DNA of 40,161 nt, from contig JBHHUU010000003.1 of NCBI GenBank assembly GCA_046753905.1, positions 1-40,161 of the forward strand, given 5' to 3'. Both the position numbers and the translations under genes were made by a program. The notes beneath the pieces are model-generated. The model was not told the origin of the DNA and did no database searches. It saw nothing but the letters and a program-made list of their open reading frames with translations. This document shows positions 2,537 to 38,792 of this stretch, piece after piece; the stretch's first letter is position 1, and every line of letters starts with the position of its first letter. The stretch is from Nitrospirota bacterium. Lineage in GTDB: Bacteria; Nitrospirota; Nitrospiria; JBHHUU01.

Positions 2537-2580
2537 TTACTACTTATAATAATTATGATATAGATAAAATTTGCCCCCAA

Positions 2581-2636: not shown

Positions 2637-2783
2637 GAAACAAAAATTAAATATCTTTTTATATCTTTCAAGTAAGATGTTATCCCATTTAGAGATGGCA
2701 AAGAGACTATCTATCATATACCTTCCGAACTATATTTTTCTGAAGGCGCGGATAGCAGTGGGATAAACAGAGAGGGAGAAGAT

Positions 2784-3776: not shown

Positions 3777-3780
3777 AGCA

Positions 3781-3819
3781 GTAGAGCAGCAGAAAAACAT
3801 TGTTTTTCTGCTGCTCTAC
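3781..3819. terminator. Perfect 19-bp-arm palindrome after the stop codon (terminator or processing hairpin)
   Basis: GTAGAGCAGCAGAAAAACA-T-TGTTTTTCTGCTGCTCTAC; no U-tract follows. Confidence 0.5.
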
Positions 3820-3881
3820 AATGGAAATTTCTATACTGTCTATACTGTTTAACTTTAGATACTTTGTACGGAGAGATGAAG

Positions 3882-4310: not shown

Positions 4311-5017
4311 TGAATCTAATTTTTATCATGGTAATGGGAATATTTCTGTTATTTAGACCGTATCCATTATTGGCTGCGGAGGATATAAGGGTAATAGACT
4401 CTGACCCCTATTCCATTACCATAGAACTTAATACATCAGATATGAAGATGGATAAGGAATCATATAATGACAGGATATATCATAAGATAAATATTAACAA
4501 TTATGGATATATGAGAGAGGTTGGCTTGCCTCAGCTCCCTGTTAAGGGTCAATTGATAGGCATTCCATCTACAGGAGGGATAGAGATAGATGTAATATAT
4601 TCTGACTATGACCTCCTGTCAGGATATAATATTTATCCTGCTCCTCAACGAATTATAGATAATGTTCAAGGGGTCAAACTTGATTTTACAATAGACGACA
4701 GGGCATATTCTACTGATGCCTTTTATCCAGATGAGATTGTATCCAGGGGATTTTCAGGCTTTATGAGAGATCAGAGGGTAATACAGTTGTTATTCTATCC
4801 TGTACAGTTCAATCCTGTCAGGCATGAGCTGAGATATTACAAGAGGATAGTTGTGAGGCTTACATTTGAGGGGTCTTTTTATAACAAGGAAGATACAAAC
4901 CGCCATAAACAAGGGGAACCCGTATCAGGGAACAGAATAATAGCTGATAGAAAATCTGATACATACGAGTTATTGCTCAGATCTTCAATTTTAAACTATA
5001 ACACTCTTGGAAGATAA
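4310..5017 (+). CDS. Stand-alone peptidase C25 (gingipain) propeptide domain protein
   Basis: Signal peptide; GLPQLPV, IYPAP, AFYP, FMRDQRV..L.FYPVQFNPV...LRYY.RI.VRL motifs typical of the C25 propeptide. Confidence 0.8.
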   Translation: MNLIFIMVMGIFLLFRPYPLLAAEDIRVIDSDPYSITIELNTSDMKMDKESYNDRIYHKININNYGYMREVGLPQLPVKGQLIGIPSTGGIEIDVIYSDYDLLSGYNIYPAPQRIIDNVQGVKLDFTIDDRAYSTDAFYPDEIVSRGFSGFMRDQRVIQLLFYPVQFNPVRHELRYYKRIVVRLTFEGSFYNKEDTNRHKQGEPVSGNRIIADRKSDTYELLLRSSILNYNTLGR

Positions 5018-5026
5018 GGTTAGTTT

Positions 5027-8005: not shown

Positions 8006-8012
8006 AAATTTA

Positions 8013-8091
8013 TCACCTTCCCCTTTATCTTTATCCCCTTATAGGAGAGGGTTAGGGAATTTTTACTTGACTCCTCAAATTCTTGAACCCT
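8013..8091. repeat. Degenerate C-rich/G-rich palindromic repeat plus short TTGA(C/A)(T/C)CCT units
   Basis: TCACCTTCCCCTTT...GGAGAGGGTTAGGGA followed by CTTGACTCCT..CTTGAACCCT; resembles dispersed REP-like intergenic repeats. Confidence 0.35.
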
Positions 8092-8210
8092 GCCATAGTT
8101 TTTTGAGGTATAATTGCAATTAAAGATGGTAGTGTCTGTGAAAAAAATAGTGATTTTTTAAGTTTTTAGATGTGTCTTTTCTATATGATTTTTATCTTTT
8201 ATTTATACAG

Positions 8211-8270
8211 AAAGGGAAATATTTTGGAATAAAAGAGAAAAATTTTTCCACTATAAAGAAAAACTTTTCC
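8211..8270. promoter_or_regulatory. Putative upstream activator array, copy 2
   Basis: GAAAAATTTTTC (8237-8248), GAAAAACTTTTC (8258-8269) and a weaker GAAATATTTTGG (8216), all at 21-bp spacing. Confidence 0.6.
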
Positions 8271-8388
8271 ATTAGAAAGATGAGTTGACATGGTATTTTT
8301 TAAAGTCTCTCTTTTTTACAGGGATAAAACTTCTATATTATCCAATTATTTTAATAGATTAGAAAAAATGATTGTTTTTGATCTTTAA

Positions 8389-8404
8389 TGGAATGGAAAT
8401 TGCA
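8389..8404 (+). promoter_or_regulatory. sigma54 (-24/-12) promoter of the giant gene
   Basis: TGGAAT-GGAAA-TTGCA: GG-N10-GC with an intact TTGCA, downstream of the same upstream array as the 2521 promoter. Confidence 0.65.
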
Positions 8405-8477
8405 AGTTTATATACTTAATAAACATCTAAAAACATTTAAAAACAAAAAGCCTTTTTTAATATTTCTTAATATTATT

Positions 8478-25434: not shown

Positions 25435-27228
25435 TTAATCGCCTATTCTTCTTGCCTCATACCCTGAATACGTTAATACCTCTTCTCCATCAGCCATAAT
25501 TATTCTAATAGTTTCGCCCTTATTGCTGCCTATTCCTGCGACTATTGCTTCACTGTCGGACAAAGTCAGGAGGGGTAAGCTCGTTTTTCCTCTTGAACCT
25601 ACTTCGTAATCCAGAAACAAAAGTCCATCCTTTTGTAAGAGAGTAACATCTCCTATAGGAAAAAGTTCATCCTGATTAGTGACCTTATAAGTTCCAAGAC
25701 GGGCAAGCCATGAATTAGGGATAGGGCGCATGTTGATTTTTTCTCCGAAGAGGTATCGCTTCCCCTTGATGTTTAATATTATAACTCTCCGACCTGAAAT
25801 CTCCTGAATGGAAACCTCCACATCTTTTATCTGACTCACAGGAAAAAGTCCGAAAAGAATCGGTTTTATCGTAAATCGCCCATCCCCAACAGGCAGCAAT
25901 TGGAAACTCTTATTGTTGAAAGATGCAAAAAGTTTTGATTTTTTCAAATAAACTGTAGCGAGCCCGGTTTCTGTACTGTAAGTCCCTTCGAATCCTCTCA
26001 GTTTTTTTATCGGCAGGATAACAACAGAGGGATAATCTCTTTCTGGTTCAGTCTTCTTTTTTATTCCTGTTTGTGTCTCAATAGCCACATTCAAGATATC
26101 TTCTGCAATTTCTTGCACTGCTGGAAAACCAGTTGACGAATTGGCAAGCACCGCCACACCAAGTTTATGCTCCGGCAGTATAGCAAGATAGCTTGTGAAA
26201 GTAAGGGTTTGTCCACCATGATAGGCTATCCTTGTACCGATATCGTCAAGGAACCATCCCAATCCGACCTTGAAATCAAAGTCAAGCGGGACATCGTTAT
26301 TCTGAGGGGTTAGCATATCTGTTATGGTTTCACTATTTAACACCCTCGTATCTTCAACCATACCCTCTGAGAGTATCACTTGCATGAAGCCTGCTAAATC
26401 TATTACATTAGAATAGAGTGAGCTTGCAGGAATATCCCTTAGTGGCGGTTCGTCATACTCTATACCCTTATTGTAACCCTTTGCTAATAGCTTTTCATTT
26501 CGTTTTTCTTCTGCAAAAGAGGAATGAACCATACCAAATGGTTGTAGCACAGACTCATCCATATAAGAGGTGAACTCGCGGTTGCTGACCTTTTCTACCA
26601 TCTGCCCAAGAAGTGTTACACCAATGTTGGAATATGAAAAGATAAGATCAGGCGGGAAAGAGGTATGTTCATCCTTGAGCATGCCTGCAATCCTTGTAAA
26701 AGCACGGGGGTCATTAGTCCATAACCCCTTATAAAGATTAGCGGGCAGACCAGAGTGGTGGGTCATGATATTTCTGGGGGTTATATGACCAGCATTTGAA
26801 AAACGTGTTTTAATGGAAAATTCGGGTAGATAATCTTTCAGAGGCTTATCTATATCTATTTTACCAGCTTCTGCAAGCTGCATGACAGCAACTGCTGTAA
26901 AAAGTTTGGAAATTGAACCTACACGGTATACTGTTTCAGGAGTTGCCTTTACTTTCTCCTTAATGTCTGCATAACCAAACCCCTCTGCAAAGATAAGATG
27001 ATTTTCGTCAACTAAGGCGATGCTCAAACCTGGCACATCATACTTTTTCATCTCTTTCTTAATCAGCCATGAGGCATAACGACGAGTATATTCATAACCG
27101 TCATTTTTTATAGCCAACGGTCTTACCGGCATAGTAGAACACCCGACAACTGCAAAAATCTGTATTGCTGCAATAATACAGATGATAACTGCTGTTTTGT
27201 TTTTTGCTATATTGCTTCTCAAAATCAT
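25435..27228 (-). CDS. Serine hydrolase, beta-lactamase/AmpC-like (peptidase S12) family lipoprotein
   Basis: SxxK (GSISK), YSN, HGG and MTHHSGL motifs; lipobox-like VVGC; GGAGGT SD before ATG 27228. Confidence 0.9.
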   Translation of the reverse strand: MILRSNIAKNKTAVIICIIAAIQIFAVVGCSTMPVRPLAIKNDGYEYTRRYASWLIKKEMKKYDVPGLSIALVDENHLIFAEGFGYADIKEKVKATPETVYRVGSISKLFTAVAVMQLAEAGKIDIDKPLKDYLPEFSIKTRFSNAGHITPRNIMTHHSGLPANLYKGLWTNDPRAFTRIAGMLKDEHTSFPPDLIFSYSNIGVTLLGQMVEKVSNREFTSYMDESVLQPFGMVHSSFAEEKRNEKLLAKGYNKGIEYDEPPLRDIPASSLYSNVIDLAGFMQVILSEGMVEDTRVLNSETITDMLTPQNNDVPLDFDFKVGLGWFLDDIGTRIAYHGGQTLTFTSYLAILPEHKLGVAVLANSSTGFPAVQEIAEDILNVAIETQTGIKKKTEPERDYPSVVILPIKKLRGFEGTYSTETGLATVYLKKSKLFASFNNKSFQLLPVGDGRFTIKPILFGLFPVSQIKDVEVSIQEISGRRVIILNIKGKRYLFGEKINMRPIPNSWLARLGTYKVTNQDELFPIGDVTLLQKDGLLFLDYEVGSRGKTSLPLLTLSDSEAIVAGIGSNKGETIRIIMADGEEVLTYSGYEARRIGD

Positions 27229-27628
27229 AACACCTCCCATTCATATATACTATCCACACACAATAAACCTTATAAATTAACTTAATTAGTAATTATTCGG
27301 CTATTACAGGGTGAGGGTTTCTTCTTACATTTGATCCTGTTTATGCTATTATATACGAAAAAATAATAAAAAGATTCAGGATTTTTCTGTTTGTCAGTGA
27401 AAATAATATTTAACAAGAATACTCGCCAATTACACCATGCACCATGACCAAGAATGGCAACAGCAAAATTAGATTTAACAGAGGATTTCGTGATGGCTGC
27501 ATCAGACAAAGATGGACTGAAGATGAGATGCAAAATGTGATAGTTATTTTTTTACAGATTTATTTGCCAAAATACAATCAGCACAACTTGATTATTGGTA
27601 AATTAGTAAATTAGGTGTTAAAAATAAT

Positions 27629-28008: not shown

Positions 28009-29280
28009 TTGAAAAAAATAATTTTTATTCTCTTAAGTCTACTAGGATTAATCACAACTGATTTCTCTGTCTCCTTTGCTGCTGGTTTTGCTATTAATGT
28101 CCATGGTGCAAAGCCTTCTGGAATGAGTGAGGCATTTGCAGCGAGAGCTGATGATCCTTCTACTATATTTTATAATCCTGCAGGTATAAATCAATTAAAA
28201 GGAACAAATCTATCCTTAGAAACAACAGTTATTCTTCCTAATGTAGAGTTTAATTCAGATATAGGGAATAATTCTGAACAGGATAGACAGGCATTCTTTC
28301 CATCTACTCTCTATATCACTCACCAGATAGATAATAGATTCAGTGCAGGACTTGGTATCTTCAGTCCATTTGGTCTCGGGACAAAGTGGCCTAAAGACTG
28401 GGAGGGCAGGTTTATGCTAACTCTCTCAGAGATAAAGACGATATTTATCAATCCTGCCTTGTCATGGCAGATAACCCCTGATCTGTCTGTGGCAGGTGGA
28501 TTTGATTATGTATTTACAGATGTGAGAATAGAGAGACAGATAAACATGGAACTCTATGGAGGAGCTCCTTCCTCAGAGGGAGATATAAGCCTTAAAGGGA
28601 ATGACACAGGCTCAGGTTATAATCTGGGTCTGTTATATCGTATAGATCCAGATTTAAATGTAGGGCTGACATATAGAAGCCCTGTTAAATTAGAGGTCAA
28701 TGACGGAGATGCTGATTTTACTGTTCCTGCGGGTTTTGAATCAACTTTCTCTGACAGCAAAATAAAGACAGATATCACGCTTCCACCGACAATAATATTG
28801 GGGATGATATTCTCTTCTATGTTAAAGGATCTTGCACTTGAGTTTGATCTTACGTGGACAGGATGGTCAAAAATAGATAGACTGGCAGTAGAATTTTTAG
28901 ATAATAACTTGCCAACTGATATAACAGAATTAAACTGGGATGATGTCTTTTCTTATAGGTTTGGAGGGGAGTATAGATGGAGTGAATCTATTCTGTTGAG
29001 AGGCGGATATGCCTTTGAGAAATCTCCCATGCCGGAAGATAAATATACCCCGGCAATATTGCCTGATGGAGACAGGCATATTATCTCATTCGGAGGAGGT
29101 TATGACCATAATAATGGGTTCGGCATTGATCTCTTTTATCAGATTATTCTGATTAAGGGTGATAAGAATAATAATGTCGGCTCGGAATTGAAATCAACTA
29201 ATGTTGCAGATGCAAGGGCAAATGGAGAGTATAAAACAACAGTAAATTTGGCGGGGATAGGGGTTAAATATCATTTTTAA
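28009..29280 (+). CDS. fadL: OmpP1/FadL/TodX family outer-membrane channel for hydrophobic compounds
   Basis: Signal peptide, AGF N-terminus, ADDPSTIFYNPAG hatch motif, SPFGL, PDGDR, C-terminal Phe. Confidence 0.92.
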   Translation: MKKIIFILLSLLGLITTDFSVSFAAGFAINVHGAKPSGMSEAFAARADDPSTIFYNPAGINQLKGTNLSLETTVILPNVEFNSDIGNNSEQDRQAFFPSTLYITHQIDNRFSAGLGIFSPFGLGTKWPKDWEGRFMLTLSEIKTIFINPALSWQITPDLSVAGGFDYVFTDVRIERQINMELYGGAPSSEGDISLKGNDTGSGYNLGLLYRIDPDLNVGLTYRSPVKLEVNDGDADFTVPAGFESTFSDSKIKTDITLPPTIILGMIFSSMLKDLALEFDLTWTGWSKIDRLAVEFLDNNLPTDITELNWDDVFSYRFGGEYRWSESILLRGGYAFEKSPMPEDKYTPAILPDGDRHIISFGGGYDHNNGFGIDLFYQIILIKGDKNNNVGSELKSTNVADARANGEYKTTVNLAGIGVKYHF

Positions 29281-29309
29281 AGAAATTTAGAATAAAAGGG
29301 GGCAGAAAG

Positions 29310-31280
29310 ATGAATAATCAACAGTTATTTGTAGAGATATCTTTACCATATCCAAAAGGTACAAAAATTGTAAAGGAGATAGTTGAACTGAATGAAAATA
29401 TCCTGTCGTTTAAGATGAAGGAAGATGAGGGCTATTTGCTTCCAGGCACACCTTTGCGGAATCTTACAATTCAAAGAAATGGATATAAAAAACATATAGA
29501 TTCCGCTGTAGTAATTTATGCGGATAGGTTAGAAGAATATGGAGAGTATAATATCAGTACTCAATTTGAATCTCCCATGACTATCCCAGAATATCCTATT
29601 AAAGAGACTGACAATGGGGATAGACGAGAATATATCAGAATAATCAGAGAACTCCCCATTAAAATAAAACTTAGAGATCCCCTGAAAAAAAAGATGGTCT
29701 CTGTAGATGGTAATATTATTACATTATCTTATACTGGTATTTCTTTTTCTACTTACCAATCTCTTCCACACTCTATCTCACATATTAGAGTAGAGATTCC
29801 TCTCCCCCCTCCGTTTTTACCAGTAAGATCCAGAGCAAAAATTGTATGGAGAGATAAAGATAAACTATCTTATGGAGCAGAGTTTAAAAGAGAAGAACTG
29901 TCTCTACTGGAATTAGAAAGATTTTTATCTACCATTTCCAGAACTCAAAAAATAGATAGAAGGAATACCACTGATGAAAGGAGAAGTGTTATTGAAAAAA
30001 CAAAAGCAGCAGATAAAAGAGATACTGTTTTTTCAGTTAATGAAAAGAGAAAGATATACAGAAGGATTACTGATATATGGAGATTAGAATCAATAAACTC
30101 CTTTGATATCTCTGAAAAGATCCGCTTATTCAAGAGGCAGAAAGGATTGGGTTATAGTCATGAGGCTGTAAGACTTCAGAGAGAGTGGGTGGCTCAGGAG
30201 ACAGGTGTTGAATTAAAACATATTGGTGTGTTCTCTGAAGATACTGAAAAGATGCGTGGTAATATAGAGAATCTTATTGGGGTGGCTCAAGTACCTATTG
30301 GTATAGCAGGACCGTTAAAGATAAATGGCCAATATGCAAAAGGTGTCTTTTATGTCCCGATGGCAACTACTGAAGGCAGTCTGGTCTATACCTATACAAT
30401 TGGTATGCAGATACTCTCTATGTCAGGCGGCGCAAATACCATGATCCTGAAAGATGAGCTTCATATCTCACCTGTCTTCAGTTTTGAAAATCTTACAAAA
30501 TCAAAATGTTTTGTTGAGTGGTTAAACAATAATTTTAATAAAATTAAAGAACATGCCGAAAAGGTAACAAGACATGGCAGGCTTTTAAGAATAGAGCCTT
30601 ACATCTTTGACAGGAATGTCGTGGTCAAATTCTGCTATTCAACAGGCGATGCAATGGGGATGAATATGGTTACATTTGCTACTGATGCGGCATGTAAATA
30701 TATATCTCCTATAGTCAAACCAAAAAGATTTTATTTGCAGGCAAACTTTTCTTCTATTAAAAAGGTCACTGCTCATAATTTTGTGACAGGTTATGGAAAG
30801 AGTGTTGTTGGAGAGGCTGTTATCCCGCAAAGGCTTATCAAGAGGATATTTAATATTACTCCTAAAAGAATGGTGAAATTCTTTAATCTTGTGCTGCTTT
30901 CTACCACTCACGCAGGGATGATTGGAATGAATGCCCATGTTGCCAATCCATTGACTGCTATCTTTATTGCCTGTGGTCAGGATGCTGCAAATGTAGCTAA
31001 TTCTCATGTTGGGGTTATTAATTATGAGACAACAGAGAATGGAGACCTATATGTAAGTCTGAAACTCCCTAATCTACTTGTTGGGACAGTTGGCGGAGGA
31101 ACTGATATTGGAACACAGCATGAGTGCCTGAAATTATTAGGTTGTTACGGTTCAGGCAATGCCCTGAAATTTTCAGAGATTGTTACTGCGGCAGCATTGG
31201 CAGGGGAGATAAGTTTATGGTCAAGCGTTCTTAATGGATCATTTGCCGAAACCTTCAAAAAATATGCAAAAAAGCAATAA
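29310..31280 (+). CDS. PilZ-domain / class I HMG-CoA reductase-like fusion protein
   Basis: N-terminal RREYIR and LSYTG PilZ-type motifs; C-terminal ENLIG, PMATTEG, TGDAMGMNM, NAHVAN, GQDAA, GTVGGGT, GEISL. Confidence 0.88.
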   Translation: MNNQQLFVEISLPYPKGTKIVKEIVELNENILSFKMKEDEGYLLPGTPLRNLTIQRNGYKKHIDSAVVIYADRLEEYGEYNISTQFESPMTIPEYPIKETDNGDRREYIRIIRELPIKIKLRDPLKKKMVSVDGNIITLSYTGISFSTYQSLPHSISHIRVEIPLPPPFLPVRSRAKIVWRDKDKLSYGAEFKREELSLLELERFLSTISRTQKIDRRNTTDERRSVIEKTKAADKRDTVFSVNEKRKIYRRITDIWRLESINSFDISEKIRLFKRQKGLGYSHEAVRLQREWVAQETGVELKHIGVFSEDTEKMRGNIENLIGVAQVPIGIAGPLKINGQYAKGVFYVPMATTEGSLVYTYTIGMQILSMSGGANTMILKDELHISPVFSFENLTKSKCFVEWLNNNFNKIKEHAEKVTRHGRLLRIEPYIFDRNVVVKFCYSTGDAMGMNMVTFATDAACKYISPIVKPKRFYLQANFSSIKKVTAHNFVTGYGKSVVGEAVIPQRLIKRIFNITPKRMVKFFNLVLLSTTHAGMIGMNAHVANPLTAIFIACGQDAANVANSHVGVINYETTENGDLYVSLKLPNLLVGTVGGGTDIGTQHECLKLLGCYGSGNALKFSEIVTAAALAGEISLWSSVLNGSFAETFKKYAKKQ

Positions 31281-31296
31281 TGTGGAATAATTTATA

Positions 31297-34200
31297 ATGC
31301 TCGTAAAAGGGAAATCTTATAAAAGATTATATGATATCAATAACGTAATTAACAAAGGCGTGGTTTATGCAGGATTATTATGTATAGTAACAATTATAGT
31401 TTCCCTGTTTAAACTTATAGTTAACGAGAATAACCAGATAAACCCATACCTCTTTCCGCCATTAACTACCTCTATATTATTCTTTCTTTATGGTGTCTAT
31501 CTCTGTTCAAAAAATATCAAATCGTCTGTTAATAATACCTTTACGCTTTTTTTGATGTCTCTTGCAATATGGCTTTCAGGATATTCTGTTATCTACTCTA
31601 CTTCTAATTATAATGATGCCATTTTCTGGGGAAAATATCTTTATATCGGGGTGATATTTATACCAACTACCTTTTATCACTTCACCGTAGAACTCTTAAA
31701 GATAAAAGAACAGAAAAAAATAGTAGTCATTGCTTATTTAATAAGTTCTATATTTTTAATCTTCCTGTTTTCAACTGACTGGTTTGTGAAGGGACTGTAT
31801 AAATATTATTGGGGTTATTATGTTAAATCTGGTTTTATGCAGGGTATATTTCTTATATATTTCTTCGGAATATATTCTAAAGGACTTGTTAACTTATATA
31901 CAGGATATAAAAAGCAAAAAGCTCAGAAATCACCAGAGTACAAAAAGACACAATATGTATTCTGGGCATTTTTTGTCGCTGTTATAGGTGCAATTGATTA
32001 TCTTCCCAATTATGGGATTGAATATTATCCTCTTGGCTACCTATTAGTAGGAACACTCTTGTTTAGTATAAGTTATCTCATCATCCAATACAATCTGATG
32101 GATATCCAGACAGTAATGCATAAGACCCTCATCTGGGCAACCCTTTCCTCTATGGTTTTTGTCCCTGTATTTGGTATATTCTATATTGGCCATGACTGGC
32201 TTAACAATCTGGGGAATCTCTATATCTCTATCCTTGTCACAGGGATGTTTATGTTATTGCTCCTTTATACAAAGACCATCCAGCCCCGTATAGATCATCT
32301 CTTTCAGCGGCGGAAATATAATCTTCAGGATATCCTTGAGAATTTTATTCAGGAGATAGCTATACTTAAAGGTCTCGACAACCTTATAGATAAGATACTT
32401 CAAACAGTGATCTCTGCCTTCTACCTTGAGAATGCAAGTTTTGTGCTTTACAATAACAAAACAGGCGAGTATGAGCTTGCAAAAGAGATAGGTCTTAAAG
32501 TAAAAAAAGATTTTTCCACTAATGACAATAGATTTTTTAAGTGGGCAGAGGAATCCAACAGGGTAATTGAATTAACAGAGATAGATAATAATCCATCCTT
32601 AGTAAATATTAAAAGATCAGGGAGACGATATTTTAATAAAGTAAAAGCCATAATCGCCATACCTCTTATCCATAATCATAAGCTAATTGGTATGGTCAAC
32701 CTTGGACAAAAGAAAAATCTGAGGGGATTTGCAAGAATAGAGATAGATTTCCTTTCTCACCTGAAAGTTGAGACATCAATAGCCCTGAGCAACTCGCTCT
32801 TATTTGACGACATAACCAAGATGTCTGAAGAACTTCAGGAGTGGACTAATGAACTAGAACATAAGGTGGATGAGAGGACAAAAGAACTTGCAGATAGCAA
32901 TCAAGAGATTGAACAGGCTTACAACAAACTTAAAGAGCTCGATCATCTCAAATCAGAATTCTTTGCCAATATCAGCCATGAGTTGAGAACACCCCTTACA
33001 CTGATAATAGCGCCTATTGAGTCTATGCTGGCTGGAGAGCTGGGCAGGCACAAAAAGGAACGGATTGTGCATCTCAATATAATGTATGATAACTCGCTTC
33101 GTCTCCTGCGCCTTATAAACAATCTTTTGGACCTTGCCAAGATAGATGCAGGCAGGATGGAAATTTATTACACAAAGGCAAATATATCAGAATTTATAAA
33201 GGGTGTTCTATCATCAGTCTCTTCAGTAGCTGATAAGAAACGTATCAGATTGACCTATTCTTCTGAAGATAAATTTCCGGATATATACTTTGACAGGGAT
33301 AAGATGGAAAGGGTCATGTTAAATCTTATCTTTAATTCCCTGAAATTTACTGATGAGGGTGGAGAGATTATAATTAGCAATGGACAGGATAATGGAAATA
33401 TATGGGTAAAGATAAAAGATACAGGCATTGGGATACCGAGGGAGTATCTGTCAAAGATATTTCAGAGATTTTCTCAGGTAGATGGATCAGCAAGACGAAA
33501 ATATGGAGGGACAGGCATAGGTCTTGCGTTAACAAAGGAGATAGTAGAGCTGCATAATGGAAAGATATATGCAGAAAGTGAAAAAGGAAAGGGCACTACA
33601 ATTAAATTTACTGTACCTGCAATTACAGAGATGGGTGAGCTCTATCAGGAGGAAGAAAGGATTTATAAGAATGACGATGATTGGACACGCAATATTTATA
33701 AAATTGCTGAATATAGCACAGCAGATGCCATGGGGCATAAAAAGGATAGTGCAAGATTGAAAAAGGTTGAAAAAGATAAAGATATTGATCCAAAGAAAGA
33801 AAAGATACTCATTGTAGAGGATAATATAGATATGGTCAATTTTATATCACTTCAACTTGAGGATGAGTATGAGATAGAGAAGGCAGGGGATGGTGCAGAA
33901 GGGGTAGAAGAGGCAAAGAAGGGTTTGCCAGACCTTATTATCTCAGATGTAATGATGCCTTTAAAGGATGGGTATCAGCTTCTAAAGGAGATAAAGTCAG
34001 ATTTTAATACCAGACACATACCTGTAATTCTCCTCACTGCAAAGGCTGATCTGTCAGATAAGATAGATGGTCTTGAATATGGGGCAGACGATTATCTTAC
34101 CAAACCCTTTAATTCCCAAGAATTAAAAGCAAAGATAAGGTCATTAATAAATTTAAGAAAACTTGAAAAAGAGATACAGGAGAGAAACGAAGAGCTTGAA

Positions 34201-35004
34201 AAGACATTAAAAGAATTGAGAAATACCCAGGCACAGCTTATTCATTCAGAAAAGATGGCAGCATTGGGCGTATTAGTTGCAGGTGTTGCCCATGAGATAA
34301 GCAATCCTGTGAGCTTTACCAAAGGGAGTATTAACAATATCAGCAGGTGTTTTAACAATGTAAGAGATATCCTTAATAGAAATCCATTAATTAAAGATAA
34401 AGCAAGAGAGAGTATTGAAGATATGGAATCTTCTTTAAATATAGTCAAAACTGGACTTGAAAGAACAGAAGGTATTGTGATTGACCTGAAGACCTTTGTG
34501 CGAAAGGATCAATTTAATTTTAACATGATGGATATCCATAAAGGACTGGATTCTACTCTGCAGCTCTTACAGTATGAGATAAAACATAAAATTAATCTCC
34601 ATAAAGACTATGGAAATATCAGAAGGATAGAAGCTATTGCAGGTCATATCAATCAGGTGTTTATGAATATATTGCAGAATGCAATTCAGGCAATTAGTGG
34701 AAAGGGTGATATCTGGATAAAGACAGAGGAGCAGATTGATAATGATATGGTTATCATATCTATAAAGGATAATGGTATGGGAATAAAAGAAGAATACCTG
34801 TCAAGAATCTGTGAGCCATTTTTTACAACAAAGGATGTAGGAAAGGGAACAGGATTAGGGCTATCTGTCTCCTATAAGATCATTGAAACCCACGGAGGTA
34901 AGATTGAAGTGAAAAGCAGGGATGGAGAGGGAACAGAATTTATTATAGTATTACCGATTACACAATCAAAAAGGGATATATTGACACTGAGTGCTGTAGG
35001 ATAG
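31297..35004 (+). CDS. Multi-TM (HisKA_7TM-like) + GAF hybrid sensor kinase with two kinase modules (HisKA-HATPase-REC-HisKA-HATPase)
   Basis: About 330-aa hydrophobic N-terminus; GAF (AIPL...GMVNLG); H-boxes SHELRTPL and AHEISNPV; REC IISDVMMP; two G-boxes GTGIGL and GTGLGL. Confidence 0.92.
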   Translation: MLVKGKSYKRLYDINNVINKGVVYAGLLCIVTIIVSLFKLIVNENNQINPYLFPPLTTSILFFLYGVYLCSKNIKSSVNNTFTLFLMSLAIWLSGYSVIYSTSNYNDAIFWGKYLYIGVIFIPTTFYHFTVELLKIKEQKKIVVIAYLISSIFLIFLFSTDWFVKGLYKYYWGYYVKSGFMQGIFLIYFFGIYSKGLVNLYTGYKKQKAQKSPEYKKTQYVFWAFFVAVIGAIDYLPNYGIEYYPLGYLLVGTLLFSISYLIIQYNLMDIQTVMHKTLIWATLSSMVFVPVFGIFYIGHDWLNNLGNLYISILVTGMFMLLLLYTKTIQPRIDHLFQRRKYNLQDILENFIQEIAILKGLDNLIDKILQTVISAFYLENASFVLYNNKTGEYELAKEIGLKVKKDFSTNDNRFFKWAEESNRVIELTEIDNNPSLVNIKRSGRRYFNKVKAIIAIPLIHNHKLIGMVNLGQKKNLRGFARIEIDFLSHLKVETSIALSNSLLFDDITKMSEELQEWTNELEHKVDERTKELADSNQEIEQAYNKLKELDHLKSEFFANISHELRTPLTLIIAPIESMLAGELGRHKKERIVHLNIMYDNSLRLLRLINNLLDLAKIDAGRMEIYYTKANISEFIKGVLSSVSSVADKKRIRLTYSSEDKFPDIYFDRDKMERVMLNLIFNSLKFTDEGGEIIISNGQDNGNIWVKIKDTGIGIPREYLSKIFQRFSQVDGSARRKYGGTGIGLALTKEIVELHNGKIYAESEKGKGTTIKFTVPAITEMGELYQEEERIYKNDDDWTRNIYKIAEYSTADAMGHKKDSARLKKVEKDKDIDPKKEKILIVEDNIDMVNFISLQLEDEYEIEKAGDGAEGVEEAKKGLPDLIISDVMMPLKDGYQLLKEIKSDFNTRHIPVILLTAKADLSDKIDGLEYGADDYLTKPFNSQELKAKIRSLINLRKLEKEIQERNEELEKTLKELRNTQAQLIHSEKMAALGVLVAGVAHEISNPVSFTKGSINNISRCFNNVRDILNRNPLIKDKARESIEDMESSLNIVKTGLERTEGIVIDLKTFVRKDQFNFNMMDIHKGLDSTLQLLQYEIKHKINLHKDYGNIRRIEAIAGHINQVFMNILQNAIQAISGKGDIWIKTEEQIDNDMVIISIKDNGMGIKEEYLSRICEPFFTTKDVGKGTGLGLSVSYKIIETHGGKIEVKSRDGEGTEFIIVLPITQSKRDILTLSAVG

Positions 35005-35009
35005 GTATT

Positions 35010-36221
35010 ATGAGAAAATATGATATGGAGTCATGGAAAGGGATCAATTATAAAAGCTATCCCATCCTATTTGTTGATGATGAAAGGCTGGCATTAGAGA
35101 CCTTTAATATACAATTTAAGAATGAATTTGATATCCATACGGCAAATAATGTAAAAGAGGCAATCTCTATTCTTGACAGGGTAGATATAGCGGTTGTTAT
35201 TACTGACCAGCGCATGCCTGATATGGGTGGTATAGAGTTGTTAAAAATGATAAAGATAAAGAGCCCAGAAGTAGTAAGGATGTTAATAACCGCTTATACT
35301 GACATGGATGTTGTAATAGACGCCATTAATAAAGGGAATGTCTATCGCTATATTACAAAGCCATACAACGAAGATGAAGTCAGAATATCTATTACACAGG
35401 GGATTGAGAGATATTTTTTAACAAGAGAAAGAGACCGTCTCTATGCAGAAAAGATAGAGACATTAAAGAAGATATCCAGGGCAAATAGACTTACCTCTGT
35501 TGGGACATTGGCCGCAGGCATGGCTCATGAGATAAATAATCCCCTTGCTGCCATCAGCACTTTTCTGCAATTAGTTCCGCAGAAATATGAAGAAGAGAAA
35601 AGGGATGATGGATTTTGGGATAATTATTACCATGTTGTTCTCGAAGAATTAGAGAGGATACGAAATATAATTGTAAGGCTTCTACAGTATTCAAAATTTA
35701 TTCCGAAAGAAGAGTTAGAGTTAGAGGAAAAAGATATAAATACTATTCTGGAAAATATGATTATCTTTATTGAAAATGAGGCAAGGAGGAGAGAGATAAT
35801 TATAAAGAGAGACTATAAAAAAGATATATTGAAGATAATGGTAAATACAGAGAGTATAAAACAGGTCTTTTTAAATTTACTGCTCAATGCTATTCAGGCT
35901 ATGCCGAATGGAGGTGAAATAATTGCTAGAACAAGGAATAAAATAGGGAGTGATAATAGTAAACTTATTGAAGTGTCAATAATAGATACAGGGATAGGTA
36001 TATCAGAAGAAAACCTTAAAAAATTATTTGCTCCTTTTTTTACTACTAAAAATCAGGAGGGCAGTGGACTTGGATTGATCGCCTGCTATCAGATTGTAGA
36101 TAGCCACAGAGGGACAATAGATGTACAGTCTGAGCTTGGAAAAGGGGCTTCCTTTACAGTCACCCTTCCATTAAATCCTACTACCCATGACAGAAGAAAG
36201 GGAGAAAGAAGAGGGGAATAA
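35010..36221 (+). CDS. Cytoplasmic REC-HisKA-HATPase hybrid kinase
   Basis: FVDDE, ITDQRMP, AHEINNPL, NLLLNA, DTGIGI, GSGLGL. Confidence 0.92.
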   Translation: MRKYDMESWKGINYKSYPILFVDDERLALETFNIQFKNEFDIHTANNVKEAISILDRVDIAVVITDQRMPDMGGIELLKMIKIKSPEVVRMLITAYTDMDVVIDAINKGNVYRYITKPYNEDEVRISITQGIERYFLTRERDRLYAEKIETLKKISRANRLTSVGTLAAGMAHEINNPLAAISTFLQLVPQKYEEEKRDDGFWDNYYHVVLEELERIRNIIVRLLQYSKFIPKEELELEEKDINTILENMIIFIENEARRREIIIKRDYKKDILKIMVNTESIKQVFLNLLLNAIQAMPNGGEIIARTRNKIGSDNSKLIEVSIIDTGIGISEENLKKLFAPFFTTKNQEGSGLGLIACYQIVDSHRGTIDVQSELGKGASFTVTLPLNPTTHDRRKGERRGE

Positions 36222-36232
36222 TCCTTAACATT

Positions 36233-37633
36233 ATGAAGAGTATTTTAATTGTTGATGATGAATCGGGTGTAAGAGAGTCTATCAGGATGATACTGAAAAA
36301 GGAATATCTCACCCTGATGGCTGCTAATGGTGAAGATGCCATTAATCTTTTTAAGGAAGAACATCCCAATCTAGTGCTGTTAGATATAATTATGCCTGAT
36401 ATTGATGGAATAGAGGTGTTAAAAAAGCTAAGAGAGATTAATAAATCTATTCCTGTAATTATGGTCACAGCCGTACAGATGGTTAAAACAGCAGTGGAGG
36501 CAATGAAATCAGGTGCTGCAGATTATATTACAAAGCCATTTGATATTGATGAGCTGAAATTAGCTGTTAGCCGAACACTTGCCACTCAGGAACTTGAGAA
36601 GGATGTCAAATATCTGCTTTCAGAGTTAATAAAAAGGTATAATATTGTCGGAAAGAGTAAATTAATGATGGATGTCTATTCAAGGATCCATCAGATAGCT
36701 GATACAAAGACAACAGTATTGATCTTAGGTGAGAGTGGAACAGGGAAGGAATTGGCAGCAAGAGCTCTTCATTATAATAGTTCCCGCTGTCATAAGCCTT
36801 TTGTCCTTGTAAACTGTGCGGCAATCCCTGAGTCATTAATAGAGAGCGAGCTTTTTGGCCACGAAAAAGGGGCATTTACAGATGCTCATATCAGAAGAGA
36901 GGGACAGTTTGAAGCAGCCAATAATGGGAGTCTGTTTTTAGATGAGATAGGTGATCTAAGCCTTGCCACACAGGCTAAACTGTTAAGGGTAATTCAGGAA
37001 AGGGAATTTGCAAGGGTGGGAGGAACAAAGACAATAAAAGTTGATGTAAGACTTATTACAGCCACTAATAAAAACTTAGAGGAGGCAATGAGAGATGGAA
37101 GATTCAGAGAAGACCTCTATTATAGAATAAATGTAGTACCAATATATCTTCCATCACTTAGAGAAAGAACTGAGGATATCCCTCTATTAGTAAAATATTT
37201 TTTAAAAAAGAATGCTGAAGAAGAAGGTAAGATGCTAAAGGAAATATCTCAGAATGCAATGGATTTTCTGGTCAGATATCAATGGCCGGGAAATGTAAGG
37301 GAGCTTGAAAATATTATTGAACAGATAGTAGTGTTATCTTCCAATGACAAAATAATGACTGATGACCTTCCCATTCATATAAAGAGTCAGACAGTATCAA
37401 GGGCATTAAAAGAAAAGACTTTATCAGGAAGGATATCTTTTGAAAGGGCTGTAATGGAGTTTGAGAAAGAGATAATATTTGAGACATTGAAAAGAGCTAA
37501 TTACATTCAGACACATGCCGCCAACCTGTTATCCATCAGCAGAAGGATGTTAAAATATAAGATGGATAATCTTGGAATCACTTTAACAAGAGACGGTGTA
37601 TCCATAGCACGAAAAAGGCAAACAAAACTATAA
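36233..37633 (+). CDS. sigma54-dependent response regulator (NtrC/AtoC family enhancer-binding protein)
   Basis: REC domain, Walker A GESGTGKE, GAFTDA loop, FLDEIG, WPGNVRELEN, C-terminal Fis-type HTH. Confidence 0.95.
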   Translation: MKSILIVDDESGVRESIRMILKKEYLTLMAANGEDAINLFKEEHPNLVLLDIIMPDIDGIEVLKKLREINKSIPVIMVTAVQMVKTAVEAMKSGAADYITKPFDIDELKLAVSRTLATQELEKDVKYLLSELIKRYNIVGKSKLMMDVYSRIHQIADTKTTVLILGESGTGKELAARALHYNSSRCHKPFVLVNCAAIPESLIESELFGHEKGAFTDAHIRREGQFEAANNGSLFLDEIGDLSLATQAKLLRVIQEREFARVGGTKTIKVDVRLITATNKNLEEAMRDGRFREDLYYRINVVPIYLPSLRERTEDIPLLVKYFLKKNAEEEGKMLKEISQNAMDFLVRYQWPGNVRELENIIEQIVVLSSNDKIMTDDLPIHIKSQTVSRALKEKTLSGRISFERAVMEFEKEIIFETLKRANYIQTHAANLLSISRRMLKYKMDNLGITLTRDGVSIARKRQTKL

Positions 37634-37646
37634 TCAGGAGAGAAAG

Positions 37647-38792
37647 ATGAATGAAAGAGCACATATTTTAATTGTAGATGATGAGATTGGTCCAAGGGAA
37701 TCATTAAAGATGATTTTAAATTCTTCTTATGATGTCTTTATTGCTGAAAATGGTGAAAAGGCAATCAAATTATTGAGTGAACAGGATGTTGATATAGTTA
37801 CCTTAGACCTTAGAATGCCAGGGCTTCAAGGCACTGAAGTATTAAGAGAGATCAAAAGGCTAAAGAGTGAAATAGAGGTTGTTATTATAACAGGTTATGG
37901 GAGTTTAAACACTGCTGTTGATGGAATTAGATATGGCGCTGCAGATTATTTGATGAAACCATTTAATGTAACAGAGATACTCAGTGTAATAGCAGGGATA
38001 TTGGATAAAAAGAAATCGTATGACCAGTTAAAAGGATTTTTGACAGATATAGAAAAACAGATAGCGTCAGGAGCAGATTTAGATGAGATAAAGAAAAAGA
38101 TAATTGATAGTCATGATTTTTTTAACAAGATAAGAAATATCGTGCAGAGCAGATTTAATGATAATGTAAAGAAAAGAGATATTGACTGCCTTGAGGTTAC
38201 AAGAGTATTAGCAGATATCTTAGATGGTAAAGAACCTCATACCCGTGGACATTCAAGCAGAGTAAATTATTATTCCAATCTCATTGCCCAGAAACTTGAA
38301 TTATCACGGGATGACAGGCATGACCTTCAGATCGGCGCTTTTTTACATGATATAGGTAAAATTGGAGTAGATAATAAGATAATATTAAAAAGTGGAAGTC
38401 TTTCAAAGACTGAGAGAGAGATAATAAAAAATCATTGTGATATAGCTGTGCAACTCCTGACACCACTGGAATTATCGCCTCAAATACTCTCAATAATAAG
38501 ACATCATCATGAGTTTTATAATGGCAGAGGGTATCCTGATGGTCTGAAAGGAGATGATATCTCTGTTCTGGCAAGGATTGTCACATTAGCCGATTCATTT
38601 GACACAATGCTGACAGATCTTCCTTATAAAAAGGGAAGGTCAATAGATGAGGCATTAGCTGAAATAAAGAGATGTGAAGGAACACAGTTTGATCCCATGA
38701 TAGTGCAGATATTTTTAAGGATAATAGAGAATGACAGAGATAATATAATAATAAATTTTTCTACTAAGAAAAAGGAGCTATTTCAAAATTAG
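37647..38792 (+). CDS. REC-HD-GYP cyclic-dinucleotide phosphodiesterase (RpfG-like)
   Basis: REC (LDLRMP); HTRGHS, LHDIGK, HHE..GRGYPDGL, ADSFD, GTQFDP. Confidence 0.92.
   Translation: MNERAHILIVDDEIGPRESLKMILNSSYDVFIAENGEKAIKLLSEQDVDIVTLDLRMPGLQGTEVLREIKRLKSEIEVVIITGYGSLNTAVDGIRYGAADYLMKPFNVTEILSVIAGILDKKKSYDQLKGFLTDIEKQIASGADLDEIKKKIIDSHDFFNKIRNIVQSRFNDNVKKRDIDCLEVTRVLADILDGKEPHTRGHSSRVNYYSNLIAQKLELSRDDRHDLQIGAFLHDIGKIGVDNKIILKSGSLSKTEREIIKNHCDIAVQLLTPLELSPQILSIIRHHHEFYNGRGYPDGLKGDDISVLARIVTLADSFDTMLTDLPYKKGRSIDEALAEIKRCEGTQFDPMIVQIFLRIIENDRDNIIINFSTKKKELFQN

Follow-up and report, generated by a model that had tools for sequence, protein, structure and literature searches.

A PilZ-linked HMG-CoA reductase-like protein from Nitrospirota, a candidate acyl thioester reductase encoded next to a 7TM sensor kinase

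Introduction

Does a protein with the fold of HMG-CoA reductase (HMGR) still act on HMG-CoA when it is fused to a PilZ domain and encoded next to a sensor kinase? The question is raised by a gene in a 40,161-nucleotide stretch of DNA from a Nitrospirota bacterium (contig JBHHUU010000003.1), hereafter referred to as the window, the product of which, P0001, ends in a class I HMGR-like domain. HMG-CoA reductase is among the most studied enzymes, and to our knowledge no member of its fold acts on another substrate. A clade in which the chemistry is retained while the HMG pocket has been given up would provide this fold with a second specificity.

An earlier note on the window suggested that the domain has retained the hydride-transfer motifs, has lost the HMG-binding residues and the catalytic histidine, and acts as a reductase on apolar acyl-CoA or acyl-ACP. 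That note lacked the features that best define the gene, namely its fusion to PilZ, its place in a signaling operon and its obligate association with a gene for a 7TM receptor. In the literature, we found neither an HMGR-fold enzyme with a fatty-acyl substrate nor a description of a PilZ-HMGR-like protein, and HisKA_7TM, the sensor domain of the adjacent kinase, appeared in the literature found only as a listed sensor domain. The terms HMG, reductase, ketoacyl, thioesterase and 7TM do not occur in a preprint that surveys PilZ proteins (10.1101/2020.02.11.943704).

Materials and Methods

Residues are numbered as in human HMGR, and the positions in P0001 were placed by HMMER alignment to an archaeal (6hr7) and a plant (8ecg) enzyme. 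The plant-to-human numbering offset of 294 and the roles of residues, including the catalytic Glu559, Lys691, Asn755 and Asp767, were taken from one study (PMC9500038), and further residue roles from another (PMC3875450). We compared 66 canonical class I sequences from bacteria and archaea to the 122 sequences of the divergent clade that holds P0001. The tree (FastTree, 222 sequences, midpoint root) has a biased sampling, because its sequences were the best matches to P0001 and the 80 top-ranking genome loci.

A scan of genome contigs with the full-length family alignment yielded at least 599 stretches, mostly canonical HMGRs; members of the divergent clade among the matches listed were only L005, L006 and L013. 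Since the full-length alignment was swamped by canonical HMGRs, a clade-specific sub-alignment of 76 residues was used for a scan of metagenomes, which yielded at least 592 stretches, of which 29 were confirmed.

Results

Protein architecture and operon

The P0001 gene is the second of a tight six-gene signaling operon on the forward strand (28009-38792; Table 1), and the Shine-Dalgarno-like AAAGGGGG is located 7 nt ahead of its ATG. The N-terminal residues, for which no fold was recognized, are possibly a degenerate first PilZ domain; relatives of 677-748 amino acids (P0033, P0034, P0050 and P0099) have two PilZ stretches. The PilZ domain itself scored 26.8 bits, a margin of only 4 bits over the cut-off of 22.5, and residues 116-192 are predicted to form a strand-rich beta-barrel (pLDDT 82-93). 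PilZ receptors of c-di-GMP carry two motifs, RxxxR (RRxxxR) and (D/N)xSxxG. The first is present in P0001 as DRREYIR (residues 104-110), and DRRxxxR is kept by most of the aligned relatives. The second reads TLSYTG, with the serine and the glycine kept and threonine in place of D/N, where the relatives have DISPTG, DIGLTG or NISPAG. The domain is presumed to be a c-di-GMP input. A precomputed PilZ match was found in 55 of the 100 best homologs.

Table 1. Features of the operon and of the P0001 gene in the window.
Feature	Position	Strand	Basis
FadL/TodX-family outer-membrane channel for hydrophobic compounds, first gene	28009..29280	+	Pfam Toluene_X PF03349, 218.8 bits
PilZ-HMGR-like gene (P0001)	29310..31280	+	ORF, 656 aa
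P0001 N-terminal ~100 residues, fold not recognized	29310..29618	+	pLDDT 41-59; no Pfam match
PilZ domain of P0001, residues 104-196	29619..29897	+	Pfam PF07238
Class I HMGR-like catalytic domain, residues 283-656	30156..31277	+	PF00368; 6hr7
Codon of I386, position of R590 (HMG-moiety contact)	30465..30467	+	alignment
Codons of I483 (D690 position) and K484 (catalytic K691, kept)	30756..30761	+	alignment
Codon of F649, position of catalytic H866	31254..31256	+	alignment
Hybrid histidine kinase, conserved partner	31297..35004	+	Pfam
Receiver-histidine kinase	35010..36221	+	Pfam Response_reg, HisKA, HATPase_c
NtrC-type sigma-54 activator with receiver	36233..37633	+	Pfam Sigma54_activat, 244.9 bits; NCBIfam AtoC/NtrC-like
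Receiver-HD-GYP protein, last gene	37647..38792	+	Pfam HD_5, 126.3 bits, and Response_reg

The channel gene at the head of the operon ends 29 nt ahead of the P0001 gene, and its product scored 115.5 bits with the FadL model of NCBIfam, which is under the cut-off of that model. This neighbor is not conserved: a FadL gene adjoins the HMGR-like gene in none of the other 19 assessable loci. The hybrid kinase gene starts 16 nt past the stop codon of the P0001 gene on the same strand, and its product contains HisKA_7TM, GAF, HisKA, HATPase and receiver domains and a second kinase-like module. The receiver-HD-GYP protein is presumably a c-di-GMP phosphodiesterase; it scored 217 bits with the NCBIfam model for the NosR-family c-di-GMP phosphodiesterase, under the cut-off of 400. 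The operon contains neither a KS nor an ACP gene, and no beta-oxidation genes were identified in it with Pfam. A sigma-54 promoter was not found ahead of the operon, the sole perfect match being located at 2521-2536, and terminator-like sites were no more common in the sequence than in shuffles. A complex prediction for residues 1-505 of the kinase and residues 283-656 of P0001 scored 0.00 against a mark of 0.32; it was run without controls and counts neither way.

Active site of the HMGR-like domain

The segment assigned to an HMGR-like domain by the earlier note (30160-31280) corresponds to a match to PF00368, which covers residues 287-648 with 371 bits against a cut-off of 27. P0001 aligned to the archaeal class I enzyme 6hr7 with an E-value of 1.3e-91 and to the plant enzyme 8ecg with 2.6e-60 (HMMER), and its model matched 6hr7_A with an E-value of 2e-35 and a TM-score of 0.74 by target (Foldseek), at 42-43% identity over the domain in the Foldseek alignment. 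The score of P0001 with the equivalog model TIGR00533 (NCBIfam) was 348.5, under the cut-off of 441.8, as were those of the clade members L104 (329.6) and L108 (318).

All of the motifs that had been read by eye are present in P0001: PMATTEG (350-356), DELHISP (382-388), DAMGMN (447-452), LQANFSSIKK (476-485), NLVLLST (526-532), MNAHVAN (540-546), GQDAA (556-560), GTVGGGT (592-598) and GSFAETF (643-649). The alignment shows that the catalytic set is retained (E559 as E355, K691 as K484, N755 as N546 and D767 as D558), with the K691/K692 pair at K484/K485, and so are the two NADPH motifs, DAMGMN and GTVGGGT. It also bears out three of the proposed losses by placing I386 at R590, I483 at D690 and F649 at H866. 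The catalytic histidine of HMGR protonates the leaving thiolate, and histidine is absent throughout the C-terminal tail of P0001. Two more arginines have been lost, R568 to I364 and R702 to Y495.

Two further positions had been listed among the losses, and both were rejected as diagnostic since they vary among canonical prokaryotic sequences. The glutamine at S684 (Q477) is there as described, but among the 66 canonical sequences glutamate occupies this position in 40 and serine in 22. The segment around K735 is gapped and variable, with K or R within a window of seven columns in 40 of the 66 canonical and 43 of the 122 divergent sequences. Differences at S684 and K735 thus appear as losses only from the viewpoint of the human enzyme.

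The divergent clade

P0001 is placed inside a group of 122 leaves, the last common ancestor of which also spans a group of seven actinobacterial leaves; the support of 0.985 belongs to this node of 129 leaves, and the 122 leaves alone have no support value of their own. R590, D690 and H866 are each present in 66 of the 66 canonical sequences, and given this conservation the pattern of pocket residues in P0001 is more than chance. Arginine is found at R590 in none of the 122 clade members, which have mostly isoleucine there (I 94, L 9, V 9, F 3). The D690 position is more mixed (I 56, V 26, D 25, E 6). R568, invariant in the canonical sequences, is retained in 37 of 122, and R702, present in 65 of the 66, is mostly replaced by an aromatic residue (Y 75, F 25), arginine being absent from the four most common residues of the clade at this position. 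The histidine behaves differently. It is kept by 95 of the 122 members (F 19, D 5, L 2), and its loss, proposed from P0001, is not a trait of the family but of a sub-clade; P0001 and the nearest branches have F, L or I at this position.

The residues of hydride transfer are almost without variation. K691, N755 and D767 are each found in 122 of 122 members and E559 in 115, with Q in the other seven. In DAxGxN, the D is kept by 120 and the G and the N by all 122, and the three glycines of GTVGGGT are present in 122, 122 and 120. This conservation suggests that catalysis is probably retained across the clade.

The clade comprises 122 sequences in this study and, with clustering at 50% identity, about 40 or more of the representatives among the best 150. 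The nearest named entries (WP_168062092.1, MCG3113872.1 and MCK5306388.1) are 53% identical over 86% of P0001 and share its PilZ and HMGR architecture and the pocket with two isoleucines. The first of these, P0006, is a “PilZ domain-containing protein” from Candidatus Manganitrophus noduliformans, which differs from P0001 in that it keeps the catalytic histidine and lacks the extra ~90 N-terminal residues. The names of these entries are all automatic, and relatives are publicly annotated as “hydroxymethylglutaryl-CoA reductase (NADPH)”.

Isoprenoid pathway genes

The genome, which is 98.8% complete, contains genes of the MEP pathway, Dxr (501 bits) and IspH (278 bits). Genes for the rest of the mevalonate pathway were not found in it, as searched for with HMG-CoA synthase C (PF08540), mevalonate kinase (TIGR00549) and diphosphomevalonate decarboxylase (TIGR01240). 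Five further genomes of the phylum have a homolog, of which four have clade members and one (G185) a form fused to a kinase; HMG-CoA synthase was found in none of the five and Dxr in all. The gene is sporadic, being present in six of the 201 sampled genomes of the phylum.

Gene neighborhoods and fusions of the relatives

A HisKA_7TM gene is located directly downstream of the HMGR-like gene in all of the 20 assessable loci of the clade (19 distinct loci and this window). In the other three HMGR clades, such a gene follows at none of 83 assessable loci; both counts were made among the matches listed. The distance between the two genes ranges from -8 to +243 nt, and overlaps of 4-8 nt are frequent. 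The labeled loci belong to Nitrospirota, Planctomycetia and Omnitrophota.

Several relatives have genes for fatty-acyl metabolism next to the pair. A PilZ-FabF, an ACP, the HMGR-like and the 7TM gene follow one another in L108, and an ACP, the HMGR-like and the 7TM gene in L104, where a PagL-type lipid A deacylase gene adjoins the cassette. The order in L117 is a START-like protein, an acyl-ACP-reductase-like protein (below the cut-off), FabF, the HMGR-like protein and 7TM. A receiver-FabF is encoded upstream in L107, and a LuxD-like acyltransferase-methyltransferase in L100. The FabF assignments near the clade genes are all above the cut-off (520-580 bits against 493.75). Fusions were also found: L122 and P0262 are thioesterase-like fusions, and P0031 combines PP-binding, PilZ and HMGR-like domains in one chain, with a pocket of isoleucine and valine like that of P0001.

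Fusions to domains for signal input are common: among 36 representatives scanned, 12 have a PilZ and two a receiver domain in addition to the HMGR-like domain. A further nine have an AMP-binding domain, some of them also PP-binding. In eight of these nine adenylation-carrier-HMGR fusions the pocket is of the canonical polar kind, so they demonstrate the use of carriers by the fold but not an apolar specificity. Among fusions of more than 1148 amino acids, only eukaryotic HMGRs with a sterol-sensing domain were recovered, at 38% identity or less, and no clade member fused to a kinase or KS, which is a weak negative.

Discussion

It is well supported that P0001 is not an enzyme of HMG-CoA and mevalonate metabolism, since the pocket residues have been lost, the equivalog score is below the cut-off, the MEP pathway is present and the mevalonate genes were not found. 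This part of the inference in the earlier note holds, whereas the other part, the reduction of apolar acyl-CoA or acyl-ACP, is supported indirectly, through the gene context of the relatives. If P0001 were an ordinary HMG-CoA reductase of biosynthesis that compensates for the lost residues elsewhere, this would agree with the strong match to PF00368 and the public annotations of the relatives, and the arginine at the S684 position in 58 of the 122 clade members could in principle replace R590. P0001, however, has glutamine at 684 and no arginine at 568, 590 or 702, and together with the sub-cut-off score and a nearly complete genome with Dxr and IspH but no detected HMG-CoA synthase, mevalonate kinase or decarboxylase, this makes such an enzyme extremely improbable.

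The reading that we prefer, at a probability of roughly 45%, is that P0001 reduces an apolar acyl thioester with NAD(P)H, gated by c-di-GMP, and that the adjacent 7TM kinase senses the lipid product. The product of P0001 is probably a fatty signal and not mevalonate, because the residues that hold the substrate are lost, a domain of the c-di-GMP type is present and a 7TM sensor gene comes next in every relative examined. The protein would be a three-part soluble enzyme, with a degenerate N-terminal module that is followed by a PilZ domain and then by a catalytic domain of the class I HMGR fold. In the catalytic domain, the machinery for hydride transfer (the NAD(P)H motifs, K691, N755, D767 and E559) serves a pocket where polar HMG-holding residues have been swapped for apolar ones (R590, D690 and R568 for isoleucine, R702 for tyrosine). 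It would most likely convert an apolar acyl thioester borne on phosphopantetheine to a fatty aldehyde or alcohol, with acyl-ACP a likelier substrate than acyl-CoA, and the PilZ domain would put this activity under the control of c-di-GMP. The 7TM-GAF hybrid kinase would take the lipophilic product as its ligand, and from this kinase a phosphorelay would lead to the sigma-54 activator and the receiver-HD-GYP phosphodiesterase; the loop would close onto the PilZ input if the latter enzyme lowers c-di-GMP. Of this scheme, the domain architecture, the residue pattern, the failure to detect a mevalonate pathway and the conserved gene pair are observations, and the class of substrate, the direction of the reaction, the binding of c-di-GMP and the role of the product as a ligand are inferred.

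The proposed substrate is backed by the ACP genes of the relatives (L104 and L108), their FabF-type synthases (L107, L108 and L117) and the P0031 fusion, as well as by the LuxD-like, thioesterase-like and acyl-ACP-reductase-like partners. As the operon in the window has neither a KS nor an ACP gene, the idea of a carrier-bound substrate depends on these relatives, the identity of which is 37-50% in the region of 76 residues used for the scan. Gene adjacency does not establish the product as the ligand of the kinase, and since the catalytic histidine has been lost, thioester reduction may be slow or absent in P0001 itself.

The last point bears on another explanation, namely that P0001 is a regulatory pseudoenzyme without turnover, which binds NAD(P)H, an acyl thioester or both and, with its PilZ domain and c-di-GMP, acts as an accessory sensor subunit that modulates the 7TM kinase. 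The histidine is missing from 27 of the 122 clade members and E559 is replaced by glutamine in seven, a stoichiometric partner would suit the pairing and the frequent gene overlaps, and fusions to PilZ or receiver domains are typical of signaling adaptors. Yet the near-invariance of K691, N755, D767 and the nucleotide motifs over 122 diverse sequences would be unusual for a dead enzyme, most members have the histidine, and the adjoining FabF and ACP genes imply a flux of substrate; we therefore consider a pseudoenzyme unlikely, but by no means negligible.

Two other explanations accept catalysis and place it elsewhere in metabolism, and both appear rather improbable to us. HMGR chemistry is reversible, and the class II enzyme of Pseudomonas mevalonii oxidizes mevalonate, so a hydrophobic alcohol or aldehyde imported by the FadL-type channel might be oxidized to an acyl thioester, with the 7TM kinase sensing the same substrate and inducing the operon. 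The channel gene at the head of the operon fits this catabolic direction, but it is not seen beside the gene in the other loci, the FabF and ACP genes of the relatives are biosynthetic, and beta-oxidation genes are lacking from the operon. Alternatively, the fatty alcohol or aldehyde could be destined for bulk lipid such as ether lipid or wax, and the kinase could monitor the state of the membrane, as 7TM sensors are able to do, instead of a discrete ligand. The genes for a PlsC-type acyltransferase and a HAD hydrolase, which are located between two PilZ-enzyme/7TM modules in L111, and the PagL-type deacylase in L104 are in line with such lipid remodeling; the sporadic occurrence of the gene suits an accessory signaling module better than core lipid synthesis, and the strict one-to-one pairing with a receptor favors signaling.

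The signal synthase that we favor resembles known systems in different respects. It shares the fold, the E/K/N/D set and the NADPH motifs with class I HMGRs (EC 1.1.1.34; Methanothermococcus thermolithotrophicus, 6hr7/6hr8, and human, 1dq8-1dqa), but differs from them in the missing arginines at R590, R568 and R702, the missing aspartate at D690 and the missing catalytic histidine, and in its PilZ fusion, signaling operon and a genome without a detected mevalonate pathway. Thioesters on carrier proteins are reduced by the SDR-type R domains of carboxylic acid reductases and of NRPS and PKS systems, by the cyanobacterial acyl-ACP reductase and by LuxC. The chemistry proposed for P0001 is like theirs, namely NAD(P)H-dependent reduction of a thioester on phosphopantetheine to yield an aldehyde or alcohol, in an unrelated fold, and the A-T-R layout is mirrored by the adenylation-carrier-HMGR proteins. 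The genes for a lipid-signal synthase and its receptor are paired in the RpfF-RpfC-RpfG (DSF) and CqsA-CqsS (CAI-1) systems, where, as in the P0001 locus, the gene for a thioester-handling enzyme is found beside that for a hybrid kinase with several membrane spans. The P0001 cluster also encodes a receiver-HD-GYP protein, the counterpart in layout of RpfG in Rpf. The likeness is one of layout alone, as P0001 has no homology to RpfF (a crotonase) or CqsA (an aminotransferase) and only the HMG-CoA_red fold was detected in it. Unlike these systems, the sensor is a HisKA_7TM protein, and the PilZ or receiver input is located directly on the enzyme.

The consequences are partly practical. The label “hydroxymethylglutaryl-CoA reductase (NADPH)” can falsely imply a capacity for mevalonate synthesis when pathways are reconstructed for uncultured groups such as Nitrospirota and Omnitrophota. 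The strict pairing offers a concrete route to the ligand of the uncharacterized HisKA_7TM sensor, and the module an opportunity to test a direct action of c-di-GMP on an enzyme of lipid metabolism. More tentatively, and with considerable doubt, the loci may represent an undescribed module of bacterial lipid signaling with a spread over Nitrospirota, Omnitrophota, Planctomycetota and metagenome lineages, in which an HMGR-fold acyl-carrier reductase, gated by a PilZ or receiver domain and sometimes provided with a FabF and an ACP of its own, would make a fatty aldehyde or alcohol autoinducer that is read by a dedicated HisKA_7TM protein, and in which the kinase/HD-GYP output would feed back on c-di-GMP. 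At L111, an HD-GYP domain takes the place of the kinase as the output of the receptor, and the locus also has a PilZ-thioesterase that is paired with a second 7TM-HD-GYP protein.

Sequence and structure of P0001

The C-terminal 374 residues of P0001 make up its HMGR-like part (371 bits in Pfam), and a PilZ domain was identified upstream of it (26.8 bits, cut-off 22.5). The score against the NCBIfam equivalog for NADPH-dependent HMG-CoA reductase, TIGR00533, was 348.5, under the cut-off of 441.8. Among solved structures, the top relative in HMMER searches was 6hr7, a class I enzyme from an archaeon (E = 1.3e-91), with plant and human HMGRs next (about 1e-60). An AlphaFold model from a 36-row alignment (mean pLDDT 73) was confident for the PilZ barrel (pLDDT 82-93) and most of the reductase domain, and weak over the first approximately 105 residues and the loop 481-492, which bears I483-K484-K485; Foldseek recovered 6hr7 with this model (E = 2e-35, TM 0.74 by target), and also human structures. 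The nearest homologs are labelled Nitrospirota or Manganitrophus, and relatives are named either "PilZ domain-containing protein" or "hydroxymethylglutaryl-CoA reductase (NADPH)" in public records.

Features of the window and of P0001
Feature	Position	Strand	Description
Sigma-54 site	2521-2536	+	TGGCACAACAATTGCA; perfect -24/-12 consensus, 0 mismatches
ORF	2784-3776	+	330 aa, unassigned
C25 propeptide protein	4310-5017	+	separate ORF
C25 peptidase	5027-8005	+	gingipain-type
Giant ORF	8388-25217	+	5609 aa
PF00144 protein	25435-27240	-	beta-lactamase family, 601 aa, hydrophobic N-terminus
Operon gene 1		+	FadL/TodX-type outer-membrane channel
Operon gene 2	29310-31280	+	P0001, PilZ-HMGR-like, 656 aa; Shine-Dalgarno-like AAAGGGGG 7 nt 5' of ATG
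PilZ	P0001 residues 104-196
HMG-CoA_red	P0001 residues 287-648
Operon gene 3	31297-35004	+	hybrid kinase, 1235 aa: HisKA_7TM, GAF, HisKA, HATPase, receiver, second kinase module
Operon gene 4		+	receiver-kinase
Operon gene 5	36233-37633	+	NtrC-type sigma-54 activator
Operon gene 6		+	receiver-HD-GYP protein

Phylogeny and the substrate pocket

We aligned 222 distinct HMGR domains, from the 120 best homologs, ORFs of 80 genome loci and ORFs of metagenome and relatives' loci; the FastTree phylogeny, midpoint-rooted, represents a biased sample. The loci came from scans of genome and metagenome collections, with genes called by longest-ORF heuristics and taxa taken from record titles, and locus figures refer to the matches listed. 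The tree separates a canonical group (66 sequences, archaeal ones included), an acidobacterial-type clade (27 sequences, support 0.999), an actinobacterial clade (7 sequences) and a divergent clade of 122 sequences that holds P0001; the latter two are jointly supported at 0.985. Residue equivalences were obtained from HMMER alignments and the plant-to-human numbering offset in excerpts of PMC9500038, which describes the HMG moiety of statins as held by polar contacts from R590, S684, D690, K691, K692 and N755 and its carboxylate by a salt bridge from K735, and names E559, K691, N755 and D767 as catalytic.

Pocket residues in P0001 and in two HMGR groups
Human position	P0001	Canonical (n=66)	Divergent (n=122)
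E559	E355, kept	E 66	E 115, Q 7
R568	I364, lost	R 66	R 37
R590	I386, lost	R 66	R 0 (I 94, L 9, V 9, F 3)
S684	Q477, changed	E 40, S 22	
N686	N479, kept		
D690	I483, lost	D 66	I 56, V 26, D 25, E 6
K691	K484, kept	K 66	K 122
K692	K485, kept		
R702		R 65	Y 75, F 25
H752	H543, kept		
N755	N546, kept	N 66	N 122
D767	D558, kept	D 66	D 122
H866	F649, lost	H 66	H 95, F 19, D 5, L 2

The alignment and phylogeny bear out the residues that the earlier note had read by eye: R590 and D690 are replaced by Ile and the C-terminal His by Phe, while the catalytic Glu, Lys pair and Asp are retained. The proposed change at S684 is real but, like that at K735, uninformative, since the former position is mixed E/S in the canonical group and the segment around the latter is variable in prokaryotes. 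The loss of R590 and R702 is the signature common to the whole divergent family, to which the sub-clade of P0001 adds the loss of D690 and its nearest branches that of the His. Nucleotide motifs are retained across the clade.

The acidobacterial-type clade (including loci L007-L019 and proteins P0102-P0120; from Acidobacteriota, Thermoanaerobaculia and Pirellulaceae) has the Arg displaced by one position (DENRVAPV), carries F, G, E and R at the positions of S684, N686, D690 and K692, respectively, and is without a 7TM neighbor; it too may act on a substrate other than HMG-CoA. On a Solirubrobacterales contig (L018), a canonical HMGR and an actinobacterial-clade paralog in which R590 is I and S684 is R lie about 5 kb apart (1793-3076 and 7899-9116).

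Genomic context

P0001 is encoded by gene 2 of a closely packed set of six on one strand (gaps of 29, 16, 5, 11 and 13 nt). The sole constant neighbor across related loci is a protein with the membrane sensor domain HisKA_7TM, encoded immediately downstream; Pfam identified it in all of the first six loci (the window, G083, G132, G123, L005, which is from Nitrospirota, and L006, from Planctomycetia) and, among the matches listed, also in the metagenome loci. For the pairing count, a locally built HMM for the 7TM region was run over all ORFs of all loci, with groups set by the tree independently of the neighbor. Among the matches listed, the 7TM gene was present in 19 of 19 assessable distinct divergent loci (20 of 20 with the window) at a gap of -8 to +243 nt, three more loci ending too early for assessment; the corresponding counts were 0/64 for canonical, 0/14 for acidobacterial and 0/5 for actinobacterial genes, and the HMM matched nowhere in all 85 loci of these clades.

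At locus L111, the receptor output is HD-GYP in place of a kinase, and a PilZ-thioesterase on the same contig is paired with a second 7TM-HD-GYP. The full run of signalling-lipid modules (437-12662, one strand) reads 7TM-GAF-kinase, receiver, PilZ-thioesterase, 7TM-HD-GYP, receiver, PlsC-type acyltransferase, HAD hydrolase, 7TM protein, receiver, PilZ-HMGR-like, 7TM-HD-GYP. The PF00144 protein encoded divergently upstream of the window operon was not seen adjoining the gene in related loci.

In the main texts of the literature searched, we found no description of a PilZ-HMGR-like architecture, nor is it mentioned in a PilZ-superfamily survey; HisKA_7TM is only named among sensor domains in the literature found. 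The HMGR fold and its chemistry are established, and such a pocket, signal inputs and receptor pairing are not known to have been described.

Substrate clues from relatives

Several divergent loci encode fatty acid synthesis proteins beside the HMGR-like gene: PilZ-FabF (555 aa), ACP (85 aa), HMGR-like (389 aa) and 7TM in L108; receiver-FabF upstream in L107; PagL, ACP, HMGR-like and 7TM in L104; and START/polyketide-cyclase-like, acyl-ACP-reductase-like (60 bits to long-chain acyl-ACP reductase, a weak likeness under the cut-off), FabF, HMGR-like and 7TM in L117. Upstream of the gene in L100 lies a fusion of a LuxD-like acyltransferase with a methyltransferase. At 520-580 bits, the synthases pass the curated FabF cut-off of 493.75. 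Protein P0031 is built of a PP-binding domain (29.5 bits against a cut-off of 20.8), a PilZ domain and an HMGR-like domain in one chain, in which I replaces R590 and V replaces D690.

Searching 1.84 billion proteins gave 3439 matches (E <= 0.001), of which 36 representatives were Pfam-scanned. The HMGR domain was joined to PilZ in 12, a receiver in two, AMP-binding (some with PP-binding) in nine, two of which also have an EcKL kinase domain, an APH/EcKL kinase in three, and PP-binding, AfsA-hotdog, thioesterase-like and acyl-CoA-binding protein domains in one each; the other six showed HMG-CoA_red only, with or without the N-terminal domain that belongs to it. The adenylation-(carrier)-HMGR proteins (736-1498 aa; P0273, P0276, P0279, P0307, P0311, P0322, P0326, P0313, P0382) resemble carboxylic acid reductase in layout, with the HMGR fold where the latter has an SDR reductase domain. 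The canonical polar pocket is retained in eight of these nine. They show use of carrier-bound thioesters to be within reach of the HMGR fold, but do not speak for an apolar acyl group.

Among the other fusions, P0255 (628 aa) joins an AfsA-type hotdog (29.9 bits, cut-off 24) to a clade-type HMGR-like domain, and P0296 (667 aa) has a canonical pocket and a C-terminal acyl-CoA-binding protein domain. The APH/EcKL fusions (780-1100 aa, kinase C-terminal) are a separate class I clade with a canonical pocket, seen in L121, L123, L125, genome G185 (L095, L096), P0291, P0312 and P0320. The gene lies between UbiA prenyltransferase-like and PPDK/PEP-utilising-like genes in L121 and L123, and L125 has a PPDK-like gene; in G185, Dxr is present and an HMG-CoA synthase search gave no match.

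Proposed function

The conserved chemistry, apolar pocket, carrier/FabF context, PilZ/receiver inputs and obligate 7TM partner are best fitted by a signal-gated reductase of an acyl-phosphopantetheine thioester, with a lipophilic product read by the 7TM receptor; we give this reading a probability of roughly 45%. A PilZ or receiver input would gate reduction by the HMGR-fold domain, the receptor would sense the product, and the relay in the window would run to the sigma-54 activator and the HD-GYP protein. Since the relay ends in these two proteins, c-di-GMP might gate the enzyme while its own level is lowered by downstream signaling, closing a loop. The operon layout is similar to Rpf/DSF and CqsA/CqsS, although their synthases are not homologous to P0001.

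Counting against the gated reductase in P0001 are the missing catalytic His and the lack of a KS or ACP gene nearby. An accessory sensor pseudoenzyme seems unlikely to us; slightly less probable still are a reverse or catabolic use linked to the FadL channel and a role in bulk-lipid remodelling. A true HMG-CoA reductase is very improbable. No mevalonate pathway was found: the 98.8% complete genome of the window (2.45 Mb) has a single PF00368 gene, no match to the HMG-CoA synthase C-domain, mevalonate kinase or diphosphomevalonate decarboxylase, and both Dxr and IspH above cut-offs. The gene is sporadic in the phylum (6 of 201 sampled genomes), and five other homolog-bearing genomes of the phylum gave Dxr in 5/5 and HMG-CoA synthase in 0/5. 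On gene content, P0001 is thus predicted not to be a mevalonate enzyme.

Other features of the window

No other perfect match to the sigma-54 consensus occurs in the window, and the site precedes the 330-aa ORF by about 250 nt. This ORF heads a same-strand run that continues with a receiver protein, the C25 propeptide protein, the C25 peptidase and the 5609-aa protein; the NtrC-type activator of the operon is a candidate regulator. The first 1204 residues of the 5609-aa protein contain BNR, chitobiase-C and Fn3-associated repeats.
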